Source: Deltaproteobacteria bacterium (GTDB lineage: Bacteria > Desulfobacterota > Desulfobaccia > Desulfobaccales > 0-14-0-80-60-11). From it: 64,000 nt of DNA. The stretch covers positions 203 to 64,202 of the forward strand of contig JACQYN010000014.1 in the NCBI GenBank assembly GCA_016208235.1, given 5' to 3'. A model generated the notes under the pieces. It was not told where the DNA came from and did no database searches. It worked only from the letters and a program-made list of their open reading frames with translations. A program made the translations under genes and the position numbers. Positions 3,998 through 62,119 of this stretch are shown here, in pieces. Positions within the stretch are counted from its first letter, which is position 1, and each line of letters starts with the position of its first letter.

Positions 3998-3999
3998 AT

Positions 4000-4058
4000 G
4001 TAGGGGCGCACCCATGTGTGCGTCCCCGGCAAGAGCGGACACATGGGTCCGCCCCTAC
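4000..4058. repeat. GTAG-headed REP-like inverted doublet
   Basis: GTAGGGGCGCACCCATGTGTGCGTCCCC ... GCGGACACATGGGTCCGCCCCTAC. Confidence 0.9.
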
Positions 4059-4095
4059 ATAAGACAATAATTTGAAAAGCTGATCCGGAGGCTCA

Positions 4096-4719: not shown

Positions 4720-4810
4720 CAGTGAGCAGTGAGCAGTAAGCAGCTGCTCACTGTTCACTTGAAGAGATAGGTCTCACGCAAAGACGCAAAGGCGCAAAGT
4801 AAGACGCAAA
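4719..4810. repeat. (CAGTGAG)n self-hairpin followed by a (CGCAAAG)n array
   Basis: ACAGTGAGCAGTGAGCAGTAAGCAGCTGCTCACTGT (4719-4759) and CACGCAAAGACGCAAAGGCGCAAAGTAAGACGCAAA (4772-4810). Confidence 0.85.
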
Positions 4811-9007: not shown

Positions 9008-9042
9008 AGCTATCAGCTGTCAGCTTTCAGCGATCAGCTTTT
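9008..9042. repeat. (CAGCTNT)n heptamer array
   Basis: AAGCTATCAGCTGTCAGCTTTCAGCGATCAGCTTTT. Related arrays occur at 20607-20640 (inverted), 40774-40812, 53919-53949 and 54022-54054. Confidence 0.85.
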
Positions 9043-16798: not shown

Positions 16799-17916
16799 CT
16801 ACCTCTGCAAAAACTGAATGATAATGCCGGTGAACAATATATTCACCAGGCACAGGGGCAACATCACTTTCCACCCCAGTTTCATGAGCTGGTCGAAACG
16901 GAAGCGGGGAAAGGTCCCCCGCACCCAGATAAAGAAGAAGACCAACGCAAAGGTCTTGATTACGAACCAGGCGATGGGGGGCAGCACCGGGCCCTGCCAG
17001 CCGCCCAAAAAGAGGGTGGTGCACAGGGCGCTGGCGACGATGATGTGGCAGTATTCCCCCATCATGAACAAGCCCCACTTCATGGAGCTGTATTCCGTCT
17101 GGAAGCCGGCCACCAGCTCGTTTTCGCATTCAATCAAGTCAAAGGGGGTGCGGGCGCATTCGGCCATGGCCGCGGTCAAAAACAGCAGGAACCCTAGGGG
17201 CTGGTAGACGATGAACCACATGGATTTCTGCGCTTCCACGATCTTCACCAGGCTCAGGCTGCCCGCCAGCATGAGCACGCCGATGACGGACAGGCCCAGG
17301 GCTAGCTCATAGCTGACCATCTGCGCGGAGAGACGCAAGCCCCCCAGCAGAGAGTACTTGTTGTTGGAGGCCCAGCCGCCCAGGACCGCGCCATACACCG
17401 ACAGGGAACCCATGGCAAAGATGTATAAGAGGCCCACGTTTACGTCGGCGATCACCCCCTGGTTCAGACTCGCCACCGTCAGGTCCACCGTATGGCCGTA
17501 AATGGTCAGGCTATCGGGAAGGATCTGGGCGGCAAAGGGAATGGCCGCGAAGGGTAGAAAAGCAGTCACCGCGGTGATGACCGGGGCCATGACAAAGAGG
17601 ACCTTGTTCCCGCCCGGAGGGGTGAAGTCTTCTTTGAAGAGCAACTTGAGCAAGTCCGCCAAGGGCTGCAGCAAACCCCAGGGCCCTACCCGGTTGGGGC
17701 CGTAGCGCAACTGGATGAAACCCAGGACTTTGCGCTCCATGAGCACCGTGTAGGCGATGAGGGCCCTACCCGGTTGGGGCCGTAGCGCAACTGGATGAAA
17801 CCCAGGACTTTGCGCTCCATGAGCACCGTGTAGGCGATGGCCGTGAGGAAGACCACCAGAATGAGGGTGATCTTCACGGCGGTCATGATTACCAAGAGGG
17901 GCAACTGATTCATCAT
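16799..17916 (-). pseudogene. nuoH: NADH-quinone oxidoreductase subunit H, frame disrupted by an 80-bp tandem duplication
   Basis: ORF 17686..17916 (MMNQLPLLV...TVLMERKVLGFIQLRYGPNRVGP then out of frame) and ORF 16799..17746 (MLMERKVLGFIQLRYGPNRVGPWGLLQP...) both encode the same NuoH N-terminal segment. The span is 1118 nt; minus 80 it is 1038 nt, or 346 codons. Confidence 0.88.
17680..17839. repeat. perfect 80-bp direct tandem duplication inside nuoH
   Basis: 17680-17759 is identical to 17760-17839 when read directly from the sequence lines. Confidence 0.95.
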
Positions 17917-20518: not shown

Positions 20519-20542
20519 AAATCGTTCCTATGTTTTCGCCAT

Positions 20543-20640
20543 GTAGGGTGGGCACGGCCCACCATTTCTCATTTATCGGCGGACCGTGCCCGCCCTGCAT
20601 TTTATTTAGCTGAAAGCTGACCGCTGAAAGCTGATAGCTT
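20543..20640. repeat. REP-like doublet plus (AGCTGAN)n array between nuoG and the inserted ORF
   Basis: GTAGGGTGGGCACGGCCCACC ... GGCGGACCGTGCCCGCCCTGCA, then TAGCTGAAAGCTGACCGCTGAAAGCTGATAGCTT. Confidence 0.85.
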
Positions 20641-22738: not shown

Positions 22739-23250
22739 ACGGCCTCCTGGCGCAGCGCCAGCCGTTCCCGGTATTTCTTGGTCAGGAAGGGGTCTTGCAA
22801 AATCTTTTCATGAAGTTTCAAAATTCCGTAGAGCAGCCCTTCCGGCCGGGGCGGGCACCCCGGGACATAGACGTCCACCGGCAGGTAGGTGTCGATGCCC
22901 TGGACCACCGCGTAGGAGTCGAAAATGCCCCCGGAGCAGGCGCAGGCCCCCATGGCGATGACCCACTTGGGCTCCGTCATCTGCTCGTAGATGCGCTCGA
23001 TCGCGGGCATCATCTTCTTGCACACCGTGCCCGCGATGATGATCACATCCGCCTGGCGGGGGGAAGCCCTAAAGGCCTCCATACCGAAGCGGGCGATGTC
23101 CCAGCGGTTGGCCGCGGTGCAGATCATCTCGATGGCGCAGCAGGCCAGACCGAAGGTGGCAGGCCAGAGACTGCTCTTGCGGCCCCAATCCACGAGCTTT
23201 TCCAGGCTGGTGGTGAGGATGTTGTATCCCAGGTGTTCTTCTATTCCCAT
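22735..23250 (-). CDS. nuoB: NADH-quinone oxidoreductase subunit B
   Basis: [16 protein letters not shown] and VPGCPPRPE cluster-N2 ligand motifs. Confidence 0.93.
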
Positions 23251-23597: not shown

Positions 23598-23660
23598 ATG
23601 GCGACCTTTTTAGATTATCCAAATGAGGCCACTTAAAGTGGCGCAATCTTGGGGTACGCC

Positions 23661-23713
23661 GCACAGGCGGGACGCCTGTGCCACTATTTTTGGGCGGACC
23701 CATGTGTCCGCCC
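23661..23713. repeat. two hairpins between nuoEF and nuoA
   Basis: GCACAGGCGGGACGCCTGTGCC and GGGCGGACCCATGTGTCCGCCC. The first family recurs at 3211-3235, 36765-36785 and 49337-49361. Confidence 0.85.
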
Positions 23714-23721
23714 TTTATTCT

Positions 23722-25578
23722 CTAATGGCTGTGCGTTTCCGCCTTACACACCCCCAGCGGACATTCCCCCGCCAGGTGCGCGTCGTATTCGTCTTTGAAC
23801 CGCTCCATGGTGGTCTTGATGAAGGAATGGGGACTCCACCCCAGCGCGCAGTTGGCGCTTTCCACCATGGCTTTGGACAGAGAGTACATGCGGTCCAGGT
23901 CCGCCTGCGCGCCTTGGCCCGCGGCCACCTTGCAGATCAACTCGTAGAGTACCCGGGTGCCCCGGCGGCAAGGGAGGCAAAAACCGCAGGATTCGTGCTG
24001 GAAGAAGTAGAGCAGGCACTTCACCACGTCGATGATGCAGGTGGTGTCGTCCATAACCATCATGGTGCCGGAGCCCAATCCCCCTTCGACCTTGGCCAGC
24101 GCCCCGTGTTCAATGGTGGTGTTCAGGTGTTCCGGGAGGAAGAAGCCCACGGACGCGCCGCCGGGCTGGACGCTCTTGATCTTCCTGCCATTCCGGACGC
24201 CGCCGCCGTAATTGTCGATGAGTTCCTGGAGCGTCATGCCCAGGTTGGCTTCCACGATCCCGGGTTTATTCACGTGGCCCACCACCTGCATGATCTTGGT
24301 GCCCGCGGTGTCCTGGGTGCCCTTGGCTTTGTACCATTCAGAGCCTTTGAGGACGATGGTGGGGACGTTCGACAGTGACTCCACGTTGTTGACGATGGTG
24401 GGCTTGTACCAGACCCCCACCTGGCCGGGGAAGGGCGGCTTCACCCGGGGATTGCCCCGCTGGCCCTGGATGGATTCGATGAGCGCGGTTTCCTCGCCGC
24501 AGACATAAGAGCCGCCGCCGGTCTGCACCTGGATGTGGAAGGAGAACCCGGAGCCCATGATGTTGTCGCCCAGCAAGCCCTTGGCCTCCGCGGCCTTAAT
24601 CGCGGCATTGAGGCGGTGCATGCTCAGGTAATATTCGCCCCGGCAGTAGATGTAGCCGAAGTTGGCCCCCACCGCGTAGCCGGCGATGGCCATGCCTTCC
24701 AGCACCTTATGGGGGTCGCCCTCCATGATGTAGCGGTCCTTGATGGTGCCAGGCTCCCCTTCGTCCGCGTTACAGACGATATACTTGGGGGTGATGGGGC
24801 TGGGCCGGGTGAAGGACCATTTCAGACCGGTGGGGAACCCCGCGCCGCCCCGGCCCCTCAGACCTGAGTCCTTGACCACGTTGACCACCTCTTCGGGGGT
24901 CATCCCCAAGGCTTTTTTCAGACCCTCGTAGCCGCCCCGAGCCTGGTAGTCTTTCAGACTTAAGGGGTCGATCTGGTCCACGTTGGCCAGAAGCACCAGT
25001 TCATCCGGGCTGGGAGGATAGTCGCTCAGGGCGTTGGTGGTGCGGGCCAGCTTCCGGTAATCCGGGGCCTTACCGGCCCGGTAGTCGCCGAGGATATTCT
25101 TAATGCGCTCCTGGGTGAGGCGGCCGTGGACCACCTCGTTGATCTGCATGGCCGGGGCCACCTCGCAGACTCCCAGACAGGCGGTGTGCTCCAGGGTAAA
25201 GAGGCCGTCGGTGGTGGTTTCCCCCACGCTGATCCCCAGTTCCCCTTTGAGTACTTCCACCAGGTTATCCACCCCCAGGATGTGGCATTGGGGCGATTCG
25301 CACACCCGGATGATGTATTTGCCCCGGGGCGAAGTGGCGTACATGGTGTAAAAACTGAGGACGCCGTAGAGGTAAGGATAGGGGACATCCATGCCCTGGG
25401 ACACGAGCTTCAGGGCCTCCAGGGGGAGCCAGTTGCCGCACAGGCCTTGGACGGCGTGCAACGCGGGCAGGAGTCCGCCCTTGGTGGCGCGGAAGCGGCG
25501 GCAGGTTTCCTGGATGGCGGAAACTTGCTCCGGGCTAAGAGAAGCGCTGACGGGGCGTTTGATTTCCAGCATTATCAA
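23722..25578 (-). CDS. nuoEF: fused NuoE-NuoF NADH dehydrogenase flavoprotein subunit
   Basis: N-terminal NuoE-type 2Fe-2S thioredoxin fold (CESPQCHILG...CLGVCEVAPAMQIN) is fused to NuoF (GLRGRGGAGFPTGLKW; ESCGFCLPCRRG). It lies upstream of nuoA. Confidence 0.88.
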   Translation of the reverse strand: MIMLEIKRPVSASLSPEQVSAIQETCRRFRATKGGLLPALHAVQGLCGNWLPLEALKLVSQGMDVPYPYLYGVLSFYTMYATSPRGKYIIRVCESPQCHILGVDNLVEVLKGELGISVGETTTDGLFTLEHTACLGVCEVAPAMQINEVVHGRLTQERIKNILGDYRAGKAPDYRKLARTTNALSDYPPSPDELVLLANVDQIDPLSLKDYQARGGYEGLKKALGMTPEEVVNVVKDSGLRGRGGAGFPTGLKWSFTRPSPITPKYIVCNADEGEPGTIKDRYIMEGDPHKVLEGMAIAGYAVGANFGYIYCRGEYYLSMHRLNAAIKAAEAKGLLGDNIMGSGFSFHIQVQTGGGSYVCGEETALIESIQGQRGNPRVKPPFPGQVGVWYKPTIVNNVESLSNVPTIVLKGSEWYKAKGTQDTAGTKIMQVVGHVNKPGIVEANLGMTLQELIDNYGGGVRNGRKIKSVQPGGASVGFFLPEHLNTTIEHGALAKVEGGLGSGTMMVMDDTTCIIDVVKCLLYFFQHESCGFCLPCRRGTRVLYELICKVAAGQGAQADLDRMYSLSKAMVESANCALGWSPHSFIKTTMERFKDEYDAHLAGECPLGVCKAETHSH

Positions 25579-25735
25579 CCCATTGTTACTATTTTCTTTG
25601 TGAAAATTTTCTTATATCTGGAAATTTTTAATCCCATTCCACCTCACTGTCAAGCACTTTTTTACTTTTTCCGGGGAATACCTGGAGTCCTCCATCTGCG
25701 CCCTTGTATGAGAATGGGGGAGGGGACAGGATGAA

Positions 25736-26012
25736 CCAGTAGTCAGTGGCCAGTGGCCAGTGGTCAGTGGCCAGTGGTCAGTAGTCATACCGAGTTGCAG
25801 TCAAAAAGGTATTAAAACGTAGGGGCGAACCTTGTGTTCGCCCGGTCGCTCCAGGGCGAACACAAGGTTCGCCCCTACGAAAAAATATGCCTTTGATGAC
25901 TAATTGGTATCAGTAGTCAGAATCGGCATCCGAGAACTTGCCTCAAAACAGAAAACAGAAAACAGAATACTGGCCACTGACCACTGACCACTGACCACTG
26001 ACCACTGAACAC
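25736..26012. repeat. 277-bp composite imperfect palindrome (heptamer arms + REP doublet core)
   Basis: Outer arms are (CAGTGGY)n at 25736-25787 against (CCACTGA)n at 25971-26012. The inner pair is ATACCGAGTTGCAGTCAAAAAGG against CCTTTGATGACTAATTGGTAT. The core is GTAGGGGCGAACCTTGTGTTCGCCC...GGGCGAACACAAGGTTCGCCCCTAC (25819-25878). Confidence 0.92.
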
Positions 26013-26019
26013 TTCATCA

Positions 26020-26589
26020 TCACCGGCCCGCCATCCGCTTCCCCAAGACCTTCAGCCATGCGCCGCCTTCCCGGAGCAGCATTTTCCCCAGGCGCAGGAA
26101 CCTGCGGCGCTGCCAGTAATCCCGGAGCAGGCCCGGGAAGGGCAGGGGGTGTAGCAAGTGGAGGTGGGCTCCGGCCTGCCGCCGGAAGAGATAATGGGCC
26201 CGGCGCATGTGCAGGTGGTCGGTGACCAGGCCCACCCGTTTAAGCCCCAGCTTCTGCAGCAGGGCCAGGGTATTTTTGGCCGCCGCGGCGGTATTGCGGC
26301 TGGTCTCTTCCAGGACCAGCAGGGCTGCCAGGCGCTCCCGGATCTCGGCCCCCCAGTTCTCCTCCACCCACTTCAGGGACCACTTCGCCATGGCCCGGGC
26401 CTCGGAGACCGGCGCGCCCCGGTTCTGACCGCCGCTAAGGAGGAAGTAGGCCCCAGGGTAATGCTCCCGCCACAGATTCAGGGCATGGAGGAGGCGCAGC
26501 CGGGTGGGCCGACCGGGGTAGCCGTCCGCGCCCACCCGGCCCCCCAGGATAATGAGGACCTGCAAGGGAGGGGGGGTAGAAATTTCCAT
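26020..26589 (-). CDS. YdcF/DUF218-family protein
   Basis: VLIILGGRVGADGYP...RLRLLHALNLW...LLSGG pattern typical of DUF218. Confidence 0.65.
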   Translation of the reverse strand: MEISTPPPLQVLIILGGRVGADGYPGRPTRLRLLHALNLWREHYPGAYFLLSGGQNRGAPVSEARAMAKWSLKWVEENWGAEIRERLAALLVLEETSRNTAAAAKNTLALLQKLGLKRVGLVTDHLHMRRAHYLFRRQAGAHLHLLHPLPFPGLLRDYWQRRRFLRLGKMLLREGGAWLKVLGKRMAGR

Positions 26590-26614: not shown

Positions 26615-26745
26615 CAGTCTCAAACTCCCCCTCCCTTGAGGGGAGGGGGTTGGGGGGAGGGTGGCGACTTGTGGCCCTGAACCTCCAAAAAGACGCCACC
26701 CCCACCCTAACCCTCCTCCCTCAAGGGGGAGGGGATTTTTCAGTC
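26615..26745. repeat. G-rich CCCTCAAGGGGGAGGGG-type inverted pair
   Basis: ACTCCCCCTCCCTTGAGGGGAGGGGGTTGGGGGGAGGGTGGCG against GCCACCCCCACCCTAACCCTCCTCCCTCAAGGGGGAGGGGA. Confidence 0.88.
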
Positions 26746-27646: not shown

Positions 27647-27738
27647 CCAGTGAGCGGTGAGCAGTTAGCAGTGAGCAGCAAAAAGAAGAACTATCGAGCC
27701 AACACTTTTTTAACTGCTTACTGCTTACAGCTCACACC
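27647..27738. repeat. (GTGAGCA)n inverted arms
   Basis: ACCAGTGAGCGGTGAGCAGTTAGCAGTGAGCAGC (27647-27680) against TAACTGCTTACTGCTTACAGCTCACACC (27711-27738). Confidence 0.85.
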
Positions 27739-29265: not shown

Positions 29266-29266
29266 G

Positions 29267-29437
29267 ACGGTTTTCAGTTTTAAGTTTTCAGTTTTCGGTA
29301 AATTTTAAGAATAAGAGGCGACCCCACGGGTCGCCTTTTATCATTTTAGGGTTTAGAGATTTAGTAAAGACAGAGATAGTCTGATTAACAGGCTCTTTTT
29401 TTTACGAAAAACGGAAAACAGAAAACAGAAAACTGCC
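29267..29437. repeat. (GTTTTCN)n / (GAAAACN)n inverted arms enclosing a terminator hairpin
   Basis: GACGGTTTTCAGTTTTAAGTTTTCAGTTTTCGGTA (29267-29300) against ACGAAAAACGGAAAACAGAAAACAGAAAACTGCC (29404-29437). Confidence 0.88.
29316..29347 (+). terminator. intrinsic terminator
   Basis: AGGCGACC-CCACG-GGTCGCCT followed by TTTTATCATTTT, about 50 nt after the stop at 29265. Confidence 0.65.
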
Positions 29438-34536: not shown

Positions 34537-34640
34537 AAGTGGTCAGTTGTCAGTGGCCAGTGGCCAGTATGGGCATCCAAGACTCTTGATTCAAAACTGA
34601 CCACTGACCACTGGTTACTGATCACTGGCCATTGTCAACT
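34537..34640. repeat. (CAGTGGY)n inverted arms
   Basis: AAGTGGTCAGTTGTCAGTGGCCAGTGGCCAGTAT against ACTGACCACTGACCACTGGTTACTGATCACTGGCCATTGTCAACT. Confidence 0.88.
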
Positions 34641-35522: not shown

Positions 35523-35627
35523 AACCACAGAGGCACAGAGGTCACAAAGGTTCACCAAGAAAATCAATGTATGGCGCGCTTTACGCACCATACATTCCTT
35601 TGTGCTCTTTGTGTCTTTGTGGTGAAA
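35523..35627. repeat. nested palindromic element, CACAAAG/CACAGAG-arm family
   Basis: AACCACAGAGGCACAGAGGTCACAAAGGTTCACCAAG ... core ATGTATGGCGCGCTTTACGCACCATACAT ... CCTTTGTGCTCTTTGTGTCTTTGTGGTG. Confidence 0.88.
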
Positions 35628-37694: not shown

Positions 37695-37815
37695 CCACAA
37701 AGACACCAAGACACAAAGGACCACAAAGAAAATAAAAGAAGGGTGCGCAAAAAGCGCACCCTTCTTTTACTTTTTTCTCTGTGAATCTTTGTGCCTTTGT
37801 GGCTTTGTGGTGAAT
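37693..37815. repeat. nested palindromic element, CACAAAG-arm family
   Basis: AACCACAAAGACACCAAGACACAAAGGACCACAAAG ... core AGAAGGGTGCGCAAAAAGCGCACCCTTCT ... CTTTGTGCCTTTGTGGCTTTGTGGTG. Confidence 0.9.
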
Positions 37816-40755: not shown

Positions 40756-40894
40756 ACCTGTCCTCCTTATTAGGAGCTGTCAACCGTTAGCTGTCAGCTA
40801 TCAGCAAAAATCAAAACACAGGGAAGGTAGGTCCCTGATCGTTGCTTTTGTTAACCGAAGACCGAAAAAAAGAAGACCGAAAACGGTATTGCCC

Positions 40895-46536: not shown

Positions 46537-46744
46537 TACCGTTTTGGGTTTTTAGTTTTTGGTTTTTCGTGAAAATAGGGGCGGGGGTGTGTCGCAACTG
46601 TGCCGCTTGGCGCCGGGGATGGTTTGGGGATAAGGCGGTGTTTTTGCGGATTATTTCGGGTTGAGTCGGAGAAATTGCGGAACAGGGGGCGGGGGGGAGG
46701 AAAAGGGTTAGCGAGGTTAGGGAAAAGCGGGGAAGGGGGCGCAA

Positions 46745-47062
46745 AAGACCCACCCCCACCCCGACCCTCCCCCCTCAAGGGGGAGGGGGTTTGCACGCCG
46801 GGGACGGCAGATGATTTACGATACCCCTGACATCCAAATGGGAGGAATTTGGGGCTTGGGCAGGGGAGAGAGCGTGGTTGGTCAGGGGGAGGGGGCATGG
46901 TATTAGAGCAGATTATAGGCGGCCTGCGGCCACCGTTTTTGTGGGGGACGGCGGGCGCGGCAAACCCTCTATCCAATTCTCGTATCCGGTTCTCGGCGTA
47001 CAAGGGGTCTTTTCCCCCTCCCCCTTGAGGGGGGAGGGCCGGGGTGGGGGTGAATTGGGGTG
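46745..47062. repeat. inverted pair of G-rich CCCTCAAGGGGGAGGGG elements about 220 bp apart, in a G-tract-dense spacer
   Basis: CCCACCCCCACCCCGACCCTCCCCCCTCAAGGGGGAGGGGG (about 46750-46793) against CCCCCTCCCCCTTGAGGGGGGAGGGCCGGGGTGGGGGTG (about 47017-47059). Confidence 0.85.
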
Positions 47063-47467: not shown

Positions 47468-47613
47468 TTAAAGACCGTTTTCGGTTTTCAGTTTTCGGTT
47501 TTCGGTAAAAGAATCAGGATCAGGATAAGGTTATCAGGGGAGGGGGCAGGGGGCCAGTACGGGTTGTACAGTTGGCAGGAAAAAAGGCGAAAAGGTTCAA
47601 AAATGTAAAGTTT

Positions 47614-47761: not shown

Positions 47762-49315
47762 ATGAAATATCTATACTCGCAATTAGACAAAGATAATTTC
47801 AGTTGGTTTGCTCAAGATATGAGTGTGGCCTCCTTAACGGAAATCGATCTCCGACGTGGAAGTTTGCGAGGTTTGAATGGATTTCAAATTAAGATCACCT
47901 ATCCAATATCGGTGATTGCTGGCAAAAACAGGTCAGGAAAATCAACAATCCTGGCTATGGCCTGCTGTGCTTTTCATAATCGTAAAGAGGGATTTAAACT
48001 ACCTGAAAGAAGATTAACCTATTATTCGTTCTCTGATTTTTTCCTGCAGACTTCAGAAGAAGTTCCATTAGAAGGCATTGCAATATTCTACCGTATAATG
48101 CATAACAATTGGAAAAAATCTAAATATGCACCTGACGGTTCCGGTAACCTATTTCAATCGCGAGTGAAAAGAAGAGGGGGAAAATGGAACAATTATGATA
48201 GGCGGGTAAAAAGAAATGTAGTGTTTCTAGGTGTACAGAGGGTGGTTCCGCATTCCGAGAAAAGCATTTCAACGAGTTATAGGACCTATTTTTCAGATCA
48301 AGCCCCTGCTGGATGGGAGACAGAGGTAAAGGAGGTGGTAGGAAGAATTCTAGGCGCATCTTACGACAGCTTCTGGATGAAAACTTATGGAAGGTATCAT
48401 CTGCCCCTTGTTGCCAACCGTGGGAATATATATTCAGGATTCAATATGGGAGCAGGCGAAAATGCCTTGTTTGAAATATTCTCCATAATTCATGCTACCC
48501 CCAAAGGAACCTTACTTGTCATTGATGAAATCGAGCTTGGGCTTCATGAAGCCGCCCAAAAGAAATTAATCAAAGAACTAAAAGAAGTATGTAGGGAAAG
48601 ACATATTCAAGTAATCTGTACCACCCATTCGGCAGCGATAATTGAAGCAGTTCCTCCAGAAGCTCGTTTTTATATAGAAAATTTTTCTGGAAAAACTAGT
48701 ATTACCCCTGGTATCTCGTCAGCTTACGCAGCAGGGAAGCTCTCAGGGGAAAAATCAAATGAATTGGATATATACGTAGAGGATGGGAAGGCTGAAACTA
48801 TTGTGGAACCATTTTTAAGTAATGATGTAAGAAAGCGTGTATCAATAATTCCGATAGGTTCTCCAATAACAATTATCCGCCATATGGCTGGACGATATAA
48901 AGAAAAAAGGAAAGCAGAATGTATATGTGTTATGGATGGTGACCAGGCAGCGAAAATCCGTCATCATATGAAAAAGTTTCTGGAGGCTTTGGAAAACAGC
49001 AAAGACACTGAAAAAGAGATAGAATGGTTTGAACAAAGATTGGTATTTTTGCCAGGAAAAACTTGGCCTGAAAAATGGTTGATTCAAACTCTTAGATCAA
49101 TAGACCTAAGCGAATTAGCTGAGATTTTACGGATTTCCAAAGAAGAGCTTTCTTCTTATATTGAAGATGCGACAAGTGCAAAAAAACATGATGAAATTTA
49201 CATATTAGCAAAGAGCTTATCGCTAAATCATCAACATGCATGCTCTACGATATGCCAGTGGTTATCGCGGGTAAAAAATGAGGAGTTTGCTTTAATAGAT
49301 CAAAAGATAAGATAA
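47762..49315 (+). CDS. ABC-type (AAA_15/21-like) ATPase fused to a Toprim/DUF4435-like domain; OLD-family / fused PARIS-like defence candidate
   Basis: Walker A VIAGKNRSGKSTIL; signature-like FNMGAGENALF; Walker B LLVIDEIELGLHE; H-loop ICTTHS. The C-terminal IYVEDGKAE and CVMDGDQ (E...DxD, 52 residues apart) fit a Toprim fold. The gene is strongly AT-rich relative to its flanks. Confidence 0.65.
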   Translation: MKYLYSQLDKDNFSWFAQDMSVASLTEIDLRRGSLRGLNGFQIKITYPISVIAGKNRSGKSTILAMACCAFHNRKEGFKLPERRLTYYSFSDFFLQTSEEVPLEGIAIFYRIMHNNWKKSKYAPDGSGNLFQSRVKRRGGKWNNYDRRVKRNVVFLGVQRVVPHSEKSISTSYRTYFSDQAPAGWETEVKEVVGRILGASYDSFWMKTYGRYHLPLVANRGNIYSGFNMGAGENALFEIFSIIHATPKGTLLVIDEIELGLHEAAQKKLIKELKEVCRERHIQVICTTHSAAIIEAVPPEARFYIENFSGKTSITPGISSAYAAGKLSGEKSNELDIYVEDGKAETIVEPFLSNDVRKRVSIIPIGSPITIIRHMAGRYKEKRKAECICVMDGDQAAKIRHHMKKFLEALENSKDTEKEIEWFEQRLVFLPGKTWPEKWLIQTLRSIDLSELAEILRISKEELSSYIEDATSAKKHDEIYILAKSLSLNHQHACSTICQWLSRVKNEEFALIDQKIR

Positions 49316-49494
49316 GAAACTTCTTAAGATAACCCAGCACAGGCAAGATGCCTGTGCCACCAAAAGAAAGATTCTTCGGTCGCTTCGCTTCCTCAGAATG
49401 ACAGTTTTTCTTTTACTGGCCACTGGCTACTGGCCACTGACCACTATTCCCCGATCTCCATCCCCACAAATACTCCTCTCCAATCCCACACCCC

Positions 49495-51505: not shown

Positions 51506-51633
51506 AAGAAGTGGTCAGTGGTCAGTGGCCAGTGGCCAGTTAATCAGTAATCAGTGGTCAGGGGTCAGAGGGAAAAGAAGTGGTCAGTGGCCAGAGAAAA
51601 AACTGATTACTGATCACTGACCACTGGCCACTG
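51506..51633. repeat. (CAGTGGY)n arms and GGTCAGGGGTCAG segment downstream of the GYD gene
   Basis: AAGAAGTGGTCAGTGGTCAGTGGCCAGTGGCCAG...GGTCAGGGGTCAGAGGGAAAAGAAGTGGTCAGTGGCC...CTGATTACTGATCACTGACCACTGGCCACTG. Confidence 0.88.
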
Positions 51634-51928: not shown

Positions 51929-52027
51929 GTGCAACCCTCCTTAAAGACGGTTTTCAGTTTTCGGTTTTCGGTTTGGGGTTTGGGTTTTTGCGTTTAAAAA
52001 AAACGGATTACAGAGCCCCACGCAACA

Positions 52028-52085
52028 TTACTGACCACTGACCACCGACCACTTCTTTTCCCTGACCCCTGACCCCTGACCCCTG
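52028..52085. repeat. inverted partner of 51556-51594
   Basis: TTACTGACCACTGACCACCGACCACTTCTTTTCCCTGACCCCTGACCCCTGACCCCTG. Its reverse complement matches 51556-51594 with about 2 mismatches and 1 indel, by eye. Confidence 0.85.
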
Positions 52086-53910: not shown

Positions 53911-54269
53911 GAGGGTACAAGCCGTCAGCTATCAGCAGTCAGCTTATAGAAAAACCGGAGGTTTGGCACTAAATTCAGCAAACCCGGTTTTCCATTTTCT
54001 TTTGATCTGATTCTTGGTTTTAAAAAGCTAAAAGCTGAAGGCTGACTGCTAAATTGCCCCTGGCCCCTCCCGCAGAACTGCCTTGCTGGTTATTTGATAT
54101 TACCCCAGGACTCACCGGATAGGCAAACGGAAAAGGGTGGGGTGCGCCAGGGGGCGGGGAGAGACAAGGAAAAAAGGCCGCAATTGCGGTGATTGTCCCA
54201 GGCGCTATCCTGGAGATGAGTTCTGCGGAATTGGCTTTAAAGGGAAGGTCGGGGAGGAGGCGAAGACGC

Positions 54270-55175: not shown

Positions 55176-55372
55176 ATCAAACCTCAAGGACCGTTTCCGG
55201 GTCCGTTTTTTCGTTTTGGGTTAAAAGATCTATAAATTGCGTCAAAAATAATTGGGCATCTTTGTCTCCGCGCCCTCTGGGCCTCCGCGGCGAATCTTTT
55301 TTCCCCCAGAGGCGCAGAGAACGTAGAGAAAGTTTATGTGCAATTACTTAAGGCGCTCTGCCTTGAAAAGTG

Positions 55373-55683
55373 CCAAGTTCCAAGTTCCAGGTTCCAAGTT
55401 AGGGGTATGCCCATCAGGAACTTTTCATAATTTACGGGTGGGCGGAAGGCCCAGGAATGACTGAATAAAAGATTCATTTTTGTTTCCAAGTTGAACTTAG
55501 GAACGCCGATTCCTCCCAAGCTTTCCCTGGGGAATTAAATTGCCAATGGGAAAAATGCTTAACCGGTTGAAATACTTTGCAAAGCAAAGCTTTGCGGTTC
55601 ATCGGGGTTCTCAAACGCAGCTTGGGAACCAGAAAAATAAAGCCTGCGGCTGCCACCCTCTCGTTCCCAATCACTCGGGAACG
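55373..55683. repeat. (CCAAGTT)4 array and several GTTCCCAAG...CTTGGGAAC-type hairpins
   Basis: CCAAGTTCCAAGTTCCAGGTTCCAAGTT (55373-55400), with hairpins at about 55482-55504, 55576-55596, 55606-55630 and 55662-55683. Confidence 0.85.
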
Positions 55684-60202: not shown

Positions 60203-60594
60203 GGGGCAAGGGCGGTTTTTAGTTTTTGGTTTTCAGTTTTTAGTTTTTAGTAAAAAGATGTGGGGCGGATTTGCCTGCGGGATTTGATTCCGGCCAGCCC
60301 TCCATACCTATTTTCACTTGCAAATAATACAAACCCACAATGTTCTGCTAATCTTTTAACTATTCAACTACAAACGCAAAACTAAAAACTATATTTAAAT
60401 TTCTTGACAGCTCTGGGCAAAATGTGCTACAGGGCTGAATATCCTTTAGTCAGGCGCAATGCAGTGAATCGGGGCGACTTAGCAACTTAGCAAGGCAATG
60501 ACGGTATGGCGGGAGCCGGCCGTTTTTTTTTGGCCTGCGCCCCCCGCGGCTGAAAGCCGACAAAGGAATCCAGGTCGAAGGAGCGGGAGGAGTT

Positions 60595-60801: not shown

Positions 60802-60886
60802 CGCAGTAATTTAAGCATCGGCAGGCTCAGAAGGTCGCACCAGGAAATCGCTCCCGCGTCTTGGCCTTGCGGCAACGGCGTGTATG

Positions 60887-60942
60887 GCGGTATAAGCTGT
60901 GGTTTTTGCGGTTCGCCTTATACCGCTTTTTTCTTTTATATG
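60887..60942 (+). terminator. candidate intrinsic terminator downstream of cspA
   Basis: GCGGTATAAG ... CTTATACCGC (10-bp stem, long loop) followed by TTTTTT. Confidence 0.45.
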
Positions 60943-61140
60943 CCTGGGATACCAAGTAAAGGTGGGGCGGGCCTCTGTGCCCGCCATTTTTATTTTTGTA
61001 GATTCCGTTGGGGCGAATTCCATGGCTGTCTGCTAAGGCTATAAAGGCCGTAGGAGCTGGTTTTCCACCCCCTTACGGACTCTGAACCCTTCCCTCCCTA
61101 ACCCGCAAATAAGCTGGGACCGGCGAACTAGCGGGGACGG

Positions 61141-61293
61141 CTAACTTACCTGCTTAAGTCGGTGGTTCTTCCTGTTATGCTCAACGTTGAACAGCACATG
61201 ACCTTTTTTCGAATAGCCCAAAAAATTTACTACGCAACAGGCCAGGGCAAATCCGCCGAACCCACAAATGATCCAAAACGGGGTGGCGTCCAT
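61141..61293 (-). CDS. possible 50-aa small membrane protein (not in the ORF track)
   Basis: My own translation is MDATPFWIICGFGGFALACCVVNFLGYSKKGHVLFNVEHNRKNHRLKQVS. AAGGAAG lies 7 nt upstream of the ATG. Confidence 0.3.
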   Translation of the reverse strand: MDATPFWIICGFGGFALACCVVNFLGYSKKGHVLFNVEHNRKNHRLKQVS

Positions 61294-61407
61294 TTTCGTT
61301 CTTCCTTAGCAAGGGTTAAAAGGGATTTTTATCAAAACTGATTAAAATATGGTTAAAAAATATAATCATATTTTGTCTTTATTCAGGGGAACAGATGTGC
61401 CCACCCC

Positions 61408-61614
61408 TTATAAAAAGGGTGGTTTAACGAAATTACCTGTTTTTATCCAATTTGATAAATAATTTATAAGCCCCATATATGAACGCCTCTCCCCATATTG
61501 CGTAACGAGCTCAAGTCTTTTTTGTAATGGCATAGTAAAATATAGCGGACTTTCAATAAATAGCGATACAATTTCTTTTTTTATTATAATTTTTGATATT
61601 CCATTTGAAGTCAT
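61408..61614 (-). CDS. hypothetical 68-aa ORF in an AT-rich region
   Basis: This is the only track ORF in the 61.3-62.1 kb AT-rich stretch. I recognise no family, and it may be a gene fragment. Confidence 0.2.
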   Translation of the reverse strand: MTSNGISKIIIKKEIVSLFIESPLYFTMPLQKRLELVTQYGERRSYMGLINYLSNWIKTGNFVKPPFL

Positions 61615-62119
61615 TTTGTTGGTATCCTAAGTTATGGCTGATTATATGGCGGCTTCTTAAAAATAATCCACTCTGACCATATCGAATAATTTGTTGACAC
61701 AATACTGTACATTAATCTTACCATTGTCCAGGGAAGTATTAATAACATATGATAGGCAGCCCCAATGAGCAATCCCTTAATGCTGGGTTCAGAAGTTCGA
61801 TTATTATGGAATTTTAACTTCTATTATGCAATTTTAGTGCCGTAACTAATCTATTAAAATTACTAAACATGTTCAAATAAAAGGATAGGGAAATTCCAAT
61901 ATTTTGGAGTATTTTCTAAAATTTTTGAAAAATTAAGCGAGTGATGAATTCATTCAGGCAGGAGGATTATTTTAGGCGGAGAAATAATATCGATTCAGCC
62001 CCGCACGCCGCCGAGGTTTTTTGGCAGCAAGCCCGTTAAAGATCACTGTTATGATCCGAAACTTATCAACTTGCTGAAAATTCAACCTATCTGGATCATA
62101 GTTGCAGGGGCCTGTCCTG

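Follow-up and report, generated by a model that had tools for sequence, protein, structure and literature searches.

The subject of this report is a set of short tandem arrays of 7-nt units, here called heptamer arrays, which occupy the spacers between genes in a 64-kb stretch of DNA from a member of the Desulfobaccales (64,000 nt of contig JACQYN010000014.1; this whole stretch is referred to as the window). The focal spacer lies between two genes on the minus strand, a DUF218 gene (26020-26589), the stop codon of which is followed by an array, and a gene encoding a NuoE/NuoF fusion (23722-25578), which lies downstream of the spacer. The left arm of the spacer is a (CAGTRGY)x7.3 array at 25737-25787, and on the sense (minus) strand it forms an A+C-rich, CTG-bearing 3' arm. 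The right arm is (ACTGRCC)x6.4 at 25969-26013, which on the sense strand reads (CAGTGGY)n and begins 6 nt past the DUF218 stop codon. These two outer arrays are complementary at 82-90%, and the 301-nt focal region has a predicted folding energy of -175.6 kcal/mol (z = -16 relative to shuffled sequences). A second, unpaired array, (AAAACAG)x3.3, with (CTGTTTT)n on its sense strand, is located at 25945-25967, in what was formerly the loop of the array hairpin. The NuoE/F-fusion gene is preceded by a sigma-70-type promoter, TTGACA-18-AAAAAT, on the minus strand at 25624-25653 (TTGACA 25653-25648; -10 box 25629-25624).

The comparison set consisted of related loci of the Desulfobaccales (Thermodesulfobacteriota), 80 from genomes and 80 from metagenomes, which are labelled with L-numbers. 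The nearest relatives of the NuoE/F protein of the window are 92-93% identical and come from Desulfobaccales metagenome-assembled genomes. A cyanobacterial origin, which the heptamers had first suggested, was rejected since the flanking genes assign the window to the Desulfobaccales; the DUF218 and NuoM proteins have no exact counterpart on record. Among the orthologous spacers of these relatives only the promoter and the 5' leader are conserved. The array at this position contains seven units in the window, approximately 25 mixed units in L001 and about eight in L004, and L006 has none.

The original prediction described the focal spacer as a 277-bp palindrome composed of heptamer arms, an inner unique inverted pair and a doublet of repetitive extragenic palindromic (REP) sequences. 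The arms, the palindrome and the doublet are all present; the inner pair is not unique, being part of a single dispersed element at 25787-25910. The focal palindrome is composite: two heptamer arrays, inverted with respect to each other, with a separate insertion nested inside, namely a REP-doublet element resembling a miniature inverted-repeat transposable element (MITE) or a REP doublet forming a hairpin (REPIN). This palindromic element is approximately 124 bp long and has terminal inverted repeats of ~20 nt, ATACCGAGTTGCAGTCAAAAAGG ... CCTTTGATGACTAATTGGTAT (ATACCGAGTTGCAGTCAAA...). Its core, at 25819-25878, consists of inverted copies of GTAG plus a hairpin (GTAGGGGCGAACCTTGTGTTCGCCC); that is, a GTAG-type tetranucleotide stands beside a short GC-rich hairpin, GTAGGGGCGAAC-CTTGT-GTTCGCCC, at 25819-25843, with the inverted copy at 25854-25878, as in REP sequences. 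As with MITEs, the terminal inverted repeats are accompanied by several copies in unrelated contexts. Copies without heptamer flanks are found in L004, L081/L082 and L067, the copy in L106 has a heptamer array on one side only, and in L001 and L086 the element occupies the orthologous site. Since it is bracketed by the direct repeat CAGTAGTC (25779-25786 on the plus strand, and 25911-25918), which abuts both of its ends, the element is placed inside the end of the left array. This repeat may be an 8-bp target duplication or merely the continuation of the interrupted heptamer array; the other copies show no consistent flanking duplication. Before the insertion the arrays of the spacer formed a hairpin whose loop, of about 48 nt, included the small AAAACAG array. 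No gene for a REP-associated tyrosine transposase (RAYT; IS200/IS605-like TnpA) was met among the 20 open reading frames (ORFs) of the 64-kb window that were scanned against Pfam, no search having been aimed at RAYT specifically.

Other palindromic elements occur in the spacers of this lineage. A family of GC-rich REP-like hairpins (e.g. GTAGGGGCGCACCC..., GGGCGGGCACNGNGCCCGCC) recurs, in the window at 3998-4060, 20541-20600 and 23640-23715. Two unrelated spacers (1439-1600 and 55482-55642) have in common a palindromic element of ~165 nt with 73% identity, which is probably another MITE-like family. Long palindromes of G and C runs (CCCCCTCCCTTGAGGGGAGGGGG...) are common to the window spacers 26620-26740 and 46740-47050, and similar-looking ones are present in L016, L032 and L042.

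The heptamer arrays were located with Tandem Repeats Finder and a separate period scan, which gave 20 period-7 arrays of 2.7-8.3 copies in the window. At a score of 14 or more the window contains 16 period-7 arrays, against none for any other period between 4 and 13 and none in the 20 dinucleotide shuffles used as a chance control. In the 1.26 Mb surrounding the 80 genome loci, arrays of period 7 number 104; period 8 comes second with 14, and periods 5, 6, 9 and 10 have 0-3 each. A census of 1.95 Mb (the window and all 160 loci) yielded 241 period-7 arrays, of which 225 are intergenic and 16 lie inside gene calls, in DNA which is about 79% coding. An independent check set of 39 array-rich, unrelated contigs from the IMG/VR viral collection (L161-L199, 346 kb) contained 240 period-7 arrays compared with 5-21 of other periods; these contigs, classed as viral, carry dense arrays of the same units, up to 21 per 10 kb. 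The arrays are found at 160 Desulfobaccales loci from many studies, on contigs of up to 3.4 Mb, and are identical in independently assembled, near-identical contigs (L045/L135, L005/L086, L081/L082). The pattern is real and genome-wide, and neither of the doubts attached to the original prediction, that the arrays might be confined to this region or be artefacts of assembly, is borne out. Nearly all of the arrays listed at the outset were recovered, those at 40774-40812, 40854-40887 and 55189-55227 only as weak, degenerate arrays. L045 and L135 are 99.9% identical and differ by a 129-nt indel in apparent coding sequence (L045 15941; L135 11942-12070), which is unrelated to the arrays.

The position of the arrays relative to genes follows strict rules. 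None of the 28 arrays in the window lies within a gene, and 12 of them start at a distance of 0-12 nt from a stop codon, in agreement with the gene-end adjacency noted originally. Within 15 nt of a stop codon there are 65 arrays, where uniform placement within the same spacers would give 19.9; for start codons the figures are 17 and 19.2. Kinship was controlled by collapsing orthologous spacers into 36 independent spacer families, after which the stop bias holds (18.1 against 5.0 expected), and the value for starts is 2.8 against 4.7. In some arrays the stop codon itself forms the beginning of the first unit, e.g. TAAGCAG. Directly after stop codons the sense strand is G+T-rich or CAG-bearing in 26 independent gene families and A+C-rich in two; directly before start codons it is A+C-rich or CTG-bearing in ten and G+T-rich in three. 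This polarity rule, which is nearly absolute, is valid in tandem, convergent and divergent spacers, and can be put geometrically: for each strand the 5' edge of the spacer is G+T-rich and the 3' edge A+C-rich. Polarity assigned by G+T content alone misjudges the balanced units AGCTATC, GGTTCAA and CAGTAAT, and the apparent exceptions disappeared once arrays were scored by T/A richness and then by CAG versus CTG. Arrays without a partner also conform, 35 following the rule and two departing from it.

Approximately one third to one half of the arrays have an inverted partner; with a limit of 300 nt and a threshold attained in no shuffle, the count is 50 of 146. All 25 inverted pairs in the window and the Desulfobaccales loci obey the polarity rule, as do 57 in the 39 viral-collection contigs, where eight pairs oppose it; these eight, with arms ~220-330 nt apart, may flank a small gene instead of sharing a spacer. 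Because the polarity is fixed, two arrays of the same family in one spacer are inverted with respect to each other, and hence the spacer can fold into a long stem-loop. The units of partner arms are more alike than in the null (mean identity 6.17 of 7 versus 5.69, p = 0.003). Spacers fold at -0.35 to -0.46 kcal/mol per nt; of the paired ones the sense strand is the more stable in ten and the antisense strand in eleven, so that there is no asymmetry between them. The copy number has its mode at 4-4.5 units and drops steeply beyond five. In the T-rich pairs (29270-29433; L049 19464/19582; L026 19445/19545) the seventh base is often non-complementary, GTTTTCA standing opposite GAAAACA. As a consequence of this mismatch both arms read CAG on the same strand, and a regular purine-purine mismatch recurs every 7 bp.

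The original prediction regarded the arms as sequence-unrelated. This cannot be maintained: CAGTGGY, CAGTGAG, CAGTAAT and CAGGGGT units are mixed within single arrays (window 51510-51633; L001), one array in L001 passes through CCACTGA, CCCCTGG, TTACTGA and CTCACTG units, and all 95 distinct units belong to one single-substitution network, whereas random units of matched composition are 59% connected. Species differ in the array at the orthologous NuoD stop codon (protein ending ...MDIVLADVDR), which is made of CAGTAAG, CAGCTAT, CGGTTTT, GGTTTTT, CAGGGGT or CAGTGAG; the position of an array is conserved at orthologous stops and its unit sequence is not. Since the best metagenome match at the focal locus has only 93% protein identity, the focal arms lack a within-species comparison, and length polymorphism was read from other contig pairs of at least 99% identity. 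Three of the five multi-nucleotide indels between such pairs are exact 7-nt changes inside arrays (two in L017/L104, one in L080/L138), as predicted for arm lengths between strains. A universal CAG/CNG core was considered and rejected: C-N-G is enriched (90 of 146 units against 44 expected), yet it is not universal. G-quadruplex potential, taken as at least four runs of three or more G, is restricted to the minor CAGGGGT family, and the GGTTTTC, CAGTGGY, CAGTGAG and AGCTATC units fall short of it. In L011 (3828), L015 (1059), L016 (9891) and L017 (2627) the conserved -35 box (AAAAAGTGCTTGACA) of the nuoEF promoter is preceded by an array, (CCGAAAA)n or (CTCAAAA)n, whose end lies a few bases upstream of it; such an array occupies the position of an UP element.

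Arrays are also found inside the nuo operon. Among the junctions of L001-L056 that were compared, about 37 relatives have nuoA and nuoB set apart by a spacer of 70-233 nt, which in ~27 of the 37 begins with (GGTTTTY)n 2-9 nt after the nuoA stop codon, and in about ten ends with (AAAAACY)n just before the Shine-Dalgarno site. In other species REP-like hairpins or other palindromic elements fill this spacer instead; hairpins of the GTAGGGGCGCACCC/GGGCGGGCACNGNGCCCGCC kind are found there in L019, L023, L027, L056 and L071. The window and 11 relatives have no such spacer, their nuoA and nuoB genes overlapping by 10 nt (ATGGGAATAG; 23241-23250 in the window). In a NuoEF tree the outgroup has the overlap, which turns up again at least three times among members of the spacer-bearing clade; where a spacer is present, the direct repeat ATGGGAAT / ATGGGCAT stands on its two sides. 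The simplest history would have the spacer gained together with a duplicated overlap and later lost precisely by way of the direct repeats, and this gain and loss is the strongest hint that the spacers may behave like cassettes. Replication slippage alone, however, is expected to excise a palindrome precisely when short direct repeats flank it.

Several known classes can be excluded, as the original prediction had held for CRISPR, simple terminators and a single MITE family. The units are 7 nt long and contiguous, unlike a CRISPR array, in which repeats of about 21-48 nt alternate with unique spacers of like length. A terminator role is ruled out by the polarity of the arrays and by their presence within the nuo operon (nuoA-nuoB, and after nuoD) in dozens of species. 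Nor do they have the form of intrinsic terminators: the 3' arm is A/C-rich with no T-run behind it. The convergent spacer 29266-29437 carries (GTTTTCA)x4 at 29270-29296, beginning 4 nt past one of its two stop codons, and (GAAAACA)x4 at 29404-29433, ending 4 nt short of the other, and its loop contains a separate, canonical bidirectional terminator hairpin at 29316-29336. One MITE family behind all of the palindromes is excluded by loops which are not common to different spacers. In an all-against-all BLAST of the window spacers the heptamer arm-loop-arm units were alike only within their arrays and had no common interior or termini, and Rfam covariance models gave no match at gathering score anywhere in the window.

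The further claim that no known feature class explains these arrays does not survive a reading of the literature, in which intergenic heptamer arrays have already been published (PMC4692102, PMC4679880, PMC2700814). Rehm et al. 2015 (PMC4692102) described GGGAATC and GGGGAYT heptamers in Xanthomonas and Nostoc with an intergenic bias and a mode of four units. Their arrays lie nearest the 5' neighbouring ORF, in whichever orientation that ORF runs, on the coding strand after stops and on the non-coding strand before starts; inverted copies were noted, closely related species vary in length and sequence, there is no association with gene classes or insertion sequences, and no function was known (PMC4692102). 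The Desulfobaccales arrays resemble these in being dispersed, intergenic 7-nt repeats of about four units with the same rule of position and strand. They differ in that their units (GGTTTTC, CAGTGGY, CAGTGAG, AGCTATC) are mostly not G-quadruplex-prone, that many families coexist in one genome, and that inverted pairs spanning a spacer are prominent.

Aklujkar et al. 2009 (PMC2700814) reported 24 + 21 + 8 = 53 pairs of opposite-strand sites in Geobacter metallireducens, each site consisting of 3-5 tandem units of 7-9 nt from the families GTTGCTYN, TCTCCGTS[Y] and MTYCTGA, and, calling them global regulator binding sites, conjectured that they bind integration host factor (IHF) or HU. The points of likeness are opposite-strand pairs at variable distance, several families, and an intergenic location which includes positions within operons (proB-proA). 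The MTYCTGA unit, as published for Geobacter, resembles CCACTGA and TTACTGA of the Desulfobaccales. The differences are the other host lineage and the fact that no polarity or stop-codon rule was reported for the Geobacter sites. MacGregor 2015 (PMC4679880) described arrays in which TAACTGA is repeated 2-6 times, from marine Beggiatoaceae, cyanobacteria and Bacteroidetes, with indels in 7-nt steps between close strains, and noted that cold-shock proteins bind one heptamer each. Those arrays likewise are intergenic, with the 'forward' (A/C-rich) orientation just upstream of starts and with mixed heptamer families, and TAACTGA arrays occur in the relatives studied here as well (e.g. L057 7461-7485, 5 nt before a start). 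In Beggiatoaceae, however, one unit dominates, mainly upstream of starts and with nearly no inverted copies, whereas in Desulfobaccales trailers after stop codons dominate and pairs are common.

With REP sequences, bacterial interspersed mosaic elements (BIMEs), REPINs and MITEs there are two points of likeness, the GTAG-hairpin doublet in the ~124-bp element and the intercistronic niche which the array hairpins share with REP sequences. The heptamer arms themselves differ from REP and MITE elements in having no conserved interior or termini, in varying by 7-nt units and in being often unpaired. The units CCCCAGT, TTGGTCA and CAACAGT are those of the cyanobacterial short tandemly repeated repetitive (STRR) sequences. 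According to the summary in PMC4679880, Mrazek 2007 ranked heptamers first among long simple repeats and put forward polymerase slippage as their origin. PMC4679880 and PMC4692102, in which the STRR heptamers and the Mrazek survey are summarised, give tandem heptanucleotides as the prevailing long simple repeat of some bacterial genomes, as they are here; the inverted-pair architecture and the polarity rule do not figure in those summaries. The arrays are an instance of the published heptamer-repeat class and not a new category. No earlier report of heptamer arrays in Desulfobaccales was found in the literature searched, and what these data add is a quantified polarity, the stop adjacency, the mode of about four units and the retention of position while the unit changes.

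The arrays change by whole units, turn over quickly, are excluded from genes, have a fixed polarity and occur inside operons. In their three or more tandem 7-nt units, excess of period 7, intergenic dispersal, unit-step variation and adherence to the rule of position and strand of Rehm et al., they agree with the STRR or long simple sequence repeat (SSR) class. We consider it an even call that they are intergenic heptanucleotide repeats made by slippage and filtered by selection at the level of the transcript. Under this proposal slipped-strand mispairing would create the arrays and also resize them, in the whole 7-nt units by which they are seen to change. Variants of the unit would spread within an array and from arm to arm, probably through intrastrand template switching in the hairpin, and hairpin-templated repair would keep the two arms alike. 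Deletion bias together with selection would press each array against the nearest constraint, the stop codon on one side and the Shine-Dalgarno site or promoter on the other. Selection would also set the polarity, favouring a G/U-rich, C-poor trailer after the stop and an A/C-rich, G-poor leader before the start. The opposite polarity would offer C-rich RNA to Rho and would have a hairpin followed by a U-rich 3' arm, the geometry of an intrinsic terminator; it would also yield G-rich, structure-prone leaders where the A/C-rich leader would be unstructured. The stem-loop formed by a pair of arrays would be tolerated inside operons, like REP and BIME elements, without ending transcription.

A number of points weigh against this account. 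Neutral slippage alone predicts neither a copy-number peak at about four units nor the retention of an array at the same stop codon across species of 75-92% protein identity. The filter on polarity (Rho, intrinsic termination, leader structure) is something that we infer, and the even division of the paired spacers between sense and antisense gives no sign of selection for pairing at the RNA level. The nuoA-nuoB spacer, flanked by ATGGGAAT / ATGGGCAT, behaves as a discrete insertion or deletion, which resembles a mobile cassette more than it does gradual lengthening. Finally, the account leaves unexplained the length of 7 nt, the mode of about four units and the persistence of arrays at given stops. 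None of the functions suggested originally (a mobile system, a protein-binding array or a transcript-end stabiliser) is demonstrated by these data; the idea of mobility fits the nested element only, and a role in termination is contradicted by the nuo operon and by the polarity.

It is these last three features, unit length, mode and persistence at stop codons, which keep alive the explanation that the arrays are periodic protein-binding sites tuning the neighbouring gene, bound either at the DNA level by a nucleoid protein or 'global regulator' of the kind suggested for Geobacter, or at the level of single-stranded RNA or DNA by a protein with a 7-nt footprint (e.g. of the cold-shock-domain type), each unit taking one monomer. 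A fixed 7-nt period with a mode of 4-5 units (28-35 nt) resembles a footprint, the polarity relative to gene ends is strict, and arrays are kept at orthologous stop codons. T-rich units such as GGTTTTC and AGTTTTT are similar to the T-rich heptamers to each of which a single CspB protein binds (PMC4679880), paired arrays were interpreted as IHF/HU sites in PMC2700814, and in L011, L015, L016 and L017 the -35 box of the nuoEF promoter adjoins a (CCGAAAA)n array. A sequence-specific protein is nevertheless unlikely, as the unit at orthologous sites ranges from T-rich to CAGTGGY to CAGGGGT; the candidate protein is hypothetical, and the genes next to the arrays have ordinary housekeeping roles and share no theme. 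We consider this explanation doubtful, though worth keeping in mind.

That the selected function is that of RNA stem-loops at transcript ends or between cistrons, protecting against 3' exonucleases or serving RNase III/E processing as analogues of REP and BIME elements, is in our view unlikely. The hairpins are very stable, at the focal spacer and in spacers generally, the arrays begin 0-12 nt after stops, the arms covary, and REP-like hairpins fill the same nuoA-nuoB spacer in other species. Two thirds of the arrays, however, are without a detectable partner, folding does not differ between sense and antisense, and the seventh base of T-rich pairs is systematically non-complementary. In convergent spacers with an internal terminator, moreover, the 3' arm would stay untranscribed. 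Somewhat more of a long shot is a transcript-level code, in which genes of these genomes would tend to acquire an A/C-rich leader and a complementary G/U-rich trailer, to be read unit by unit by a single-strand-binding protein of the cold-shock-domain type with a 7-nt footprint, or to pair into an mRNA panhandle. If this were true, the period, the mode of about four units and the nearly absolute polarity seen in several phyla would reflect one general and so far unrecognised post-transcriptional mechanism.

It is improbable that the arm-loop-arm units are mobile cassettes, either MITE-like with arrays as termini or moved by structure-specific recombination, which insert at gene ends and excise precisely. 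The alternation at nuoA-nuoB between a 10-nt overlap (ATGGGAATAG) and a 70-233-nt spacer with flanking ATGGGAAT / ATGGGCAT, with the overlap ancestral on the NuoEF tree and reappearing at least three times in the spacer clade, is what such cassettes would produce; TTAAAGAC recurs beside GGTTTTC arrays at unrelated sites, and the same arrays occur in viral-collection contigs. Against this, loops differ between spacers, termini outside the arrays show no consistent conservation, length changes in arrays amount to single units, and many arrays are unpaired. Precise loss between short direct repeats would follow from slippage without any cassette, and among the 20 ORFs of the window scanned against Pfam no transposase or nuclease is linked to the arrays. 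That the arrays are assembly artefacts of low-complexity sequence, as a suspicious perfect 80-bp tandem duplication frameshifting nuoH in the window and contigs breaking off within array-rich spacers (L001) might suggest, is hardly conceivable given the independent assemblies L045/L135, L005/L086 and L081/L082 with the same arrays, the recurrence at 160 loci drawn from many studies, with contigs as long as 3.4 Mb, and the strict rules of position and polarity that the arrays obey. The duplication itself (17680-17839) is in the 5' end of nuoH (16799-17746, minus strand), which is frameshifted as given; with one 80-bp copy removed an intact NuoH N-terminus (MMNQLPLLVIMTAVKITLILVV...) results, and the duplication is either an assembly artefact or a very recent event.

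The remaining arrays of the window can be listed briefly. Between the uvrB and GYD genes an inverted pair at 51510-51633 sets CAGTGGT, CAGTGGC, CAGTAAT and CAGGGGT against ACTGATT, ACTGATC, ACTGACC and ACTGGCC, the unit variants of one arm being mirrored in the other. Further inverted pairs are (AGTGGYC)n / (ACTGACC)n at 34538-34631 in a convergent spacer, (CAGTGAG)n / (ACTGCTY)n at 27650-27736 in a divergent spacer, and the AGCT-containing units CAGCTAT / AGCTGAA at 53919-54045. At 4720-4759 (CAGTGAG)x3, beginning at the base right after a stop codon, is followed directly by its inverted copy, and (GTTTTTA)x5 at 60215-60251, 12 nt after a stop, has the partner (AACTAAA)n at 60366-60391. Spacer 51950-52085 has arrays which do not match: (GTTTTCR/GGTTTGG)n at 51950-51988 beside the Shine-Dalgarno site of the GYD gene, and on the cysS side (ACTGACC)x3 at 52030-52052 and (CCCTGAC)x4 at 52060-52085, 2 nt from the cysS stop codon.

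Unpaired arrays comprise (CCGAAAA)x4.4 at 1624-1654, 3 nt from the stop of a minus-strand gene (sense strand CGGTTTT); (GTTTTCG)x4.3 at 47477-47506, 9 nt upstream of a minus-strand start (sense strand CGAAAAC); (GTTTTKR)n at 46541-46567, 4 nt after a stop; (ACTGGCC)x4.4 at 49415-49445 in a convergent spacer; and (AAGTTCC)x4.7 at 55368-55400. The unit of (AGCTNTC)x4.6 at 9008-9038, 2 nt after a stop, is self-complementary, and a sister array lies at 20608-20639, 4 nt from a stop codon. Arrays of 8-nt units (CACAAAGR, ACGCAAAG) with the same inverted-pair design as the heptamers are located at 49-72, 141-163, 4776-4799, 35526-35621 and 37696-37810. The window further contains two islands of low G+C content, 47762-49315 and 60802-62119 (41-46% compared with 58% overall). 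The former encodes an AAA_21/AbiEii-type ATPase, which is likely an acquired defence or toxin-antitoxin gene; the latter, of 1.3 kb, contains no convincing gene.

In practical terms, contig breaks and spurious palindromes in metagenome-assembled genomes are accounted for by the arrays, which call for masking, or for annotation as a class, and not for presentation as novel elements. In several bacterial phyla few long simple repeats are as common as heptamer arrays, and the present data sharpen a long-standing puzzle without establishing a new mechanism. Because many related genomes carry an array at the same stop codon with a changing unit, comparative and experimental tests are feasible. The rules found in the Desulfobaccales extend the Xanthomonas and Nostoc observation to a distant phylum and to units which are not G-quadruplex-prone, and they constrain any mechanism proposed for these repeats.

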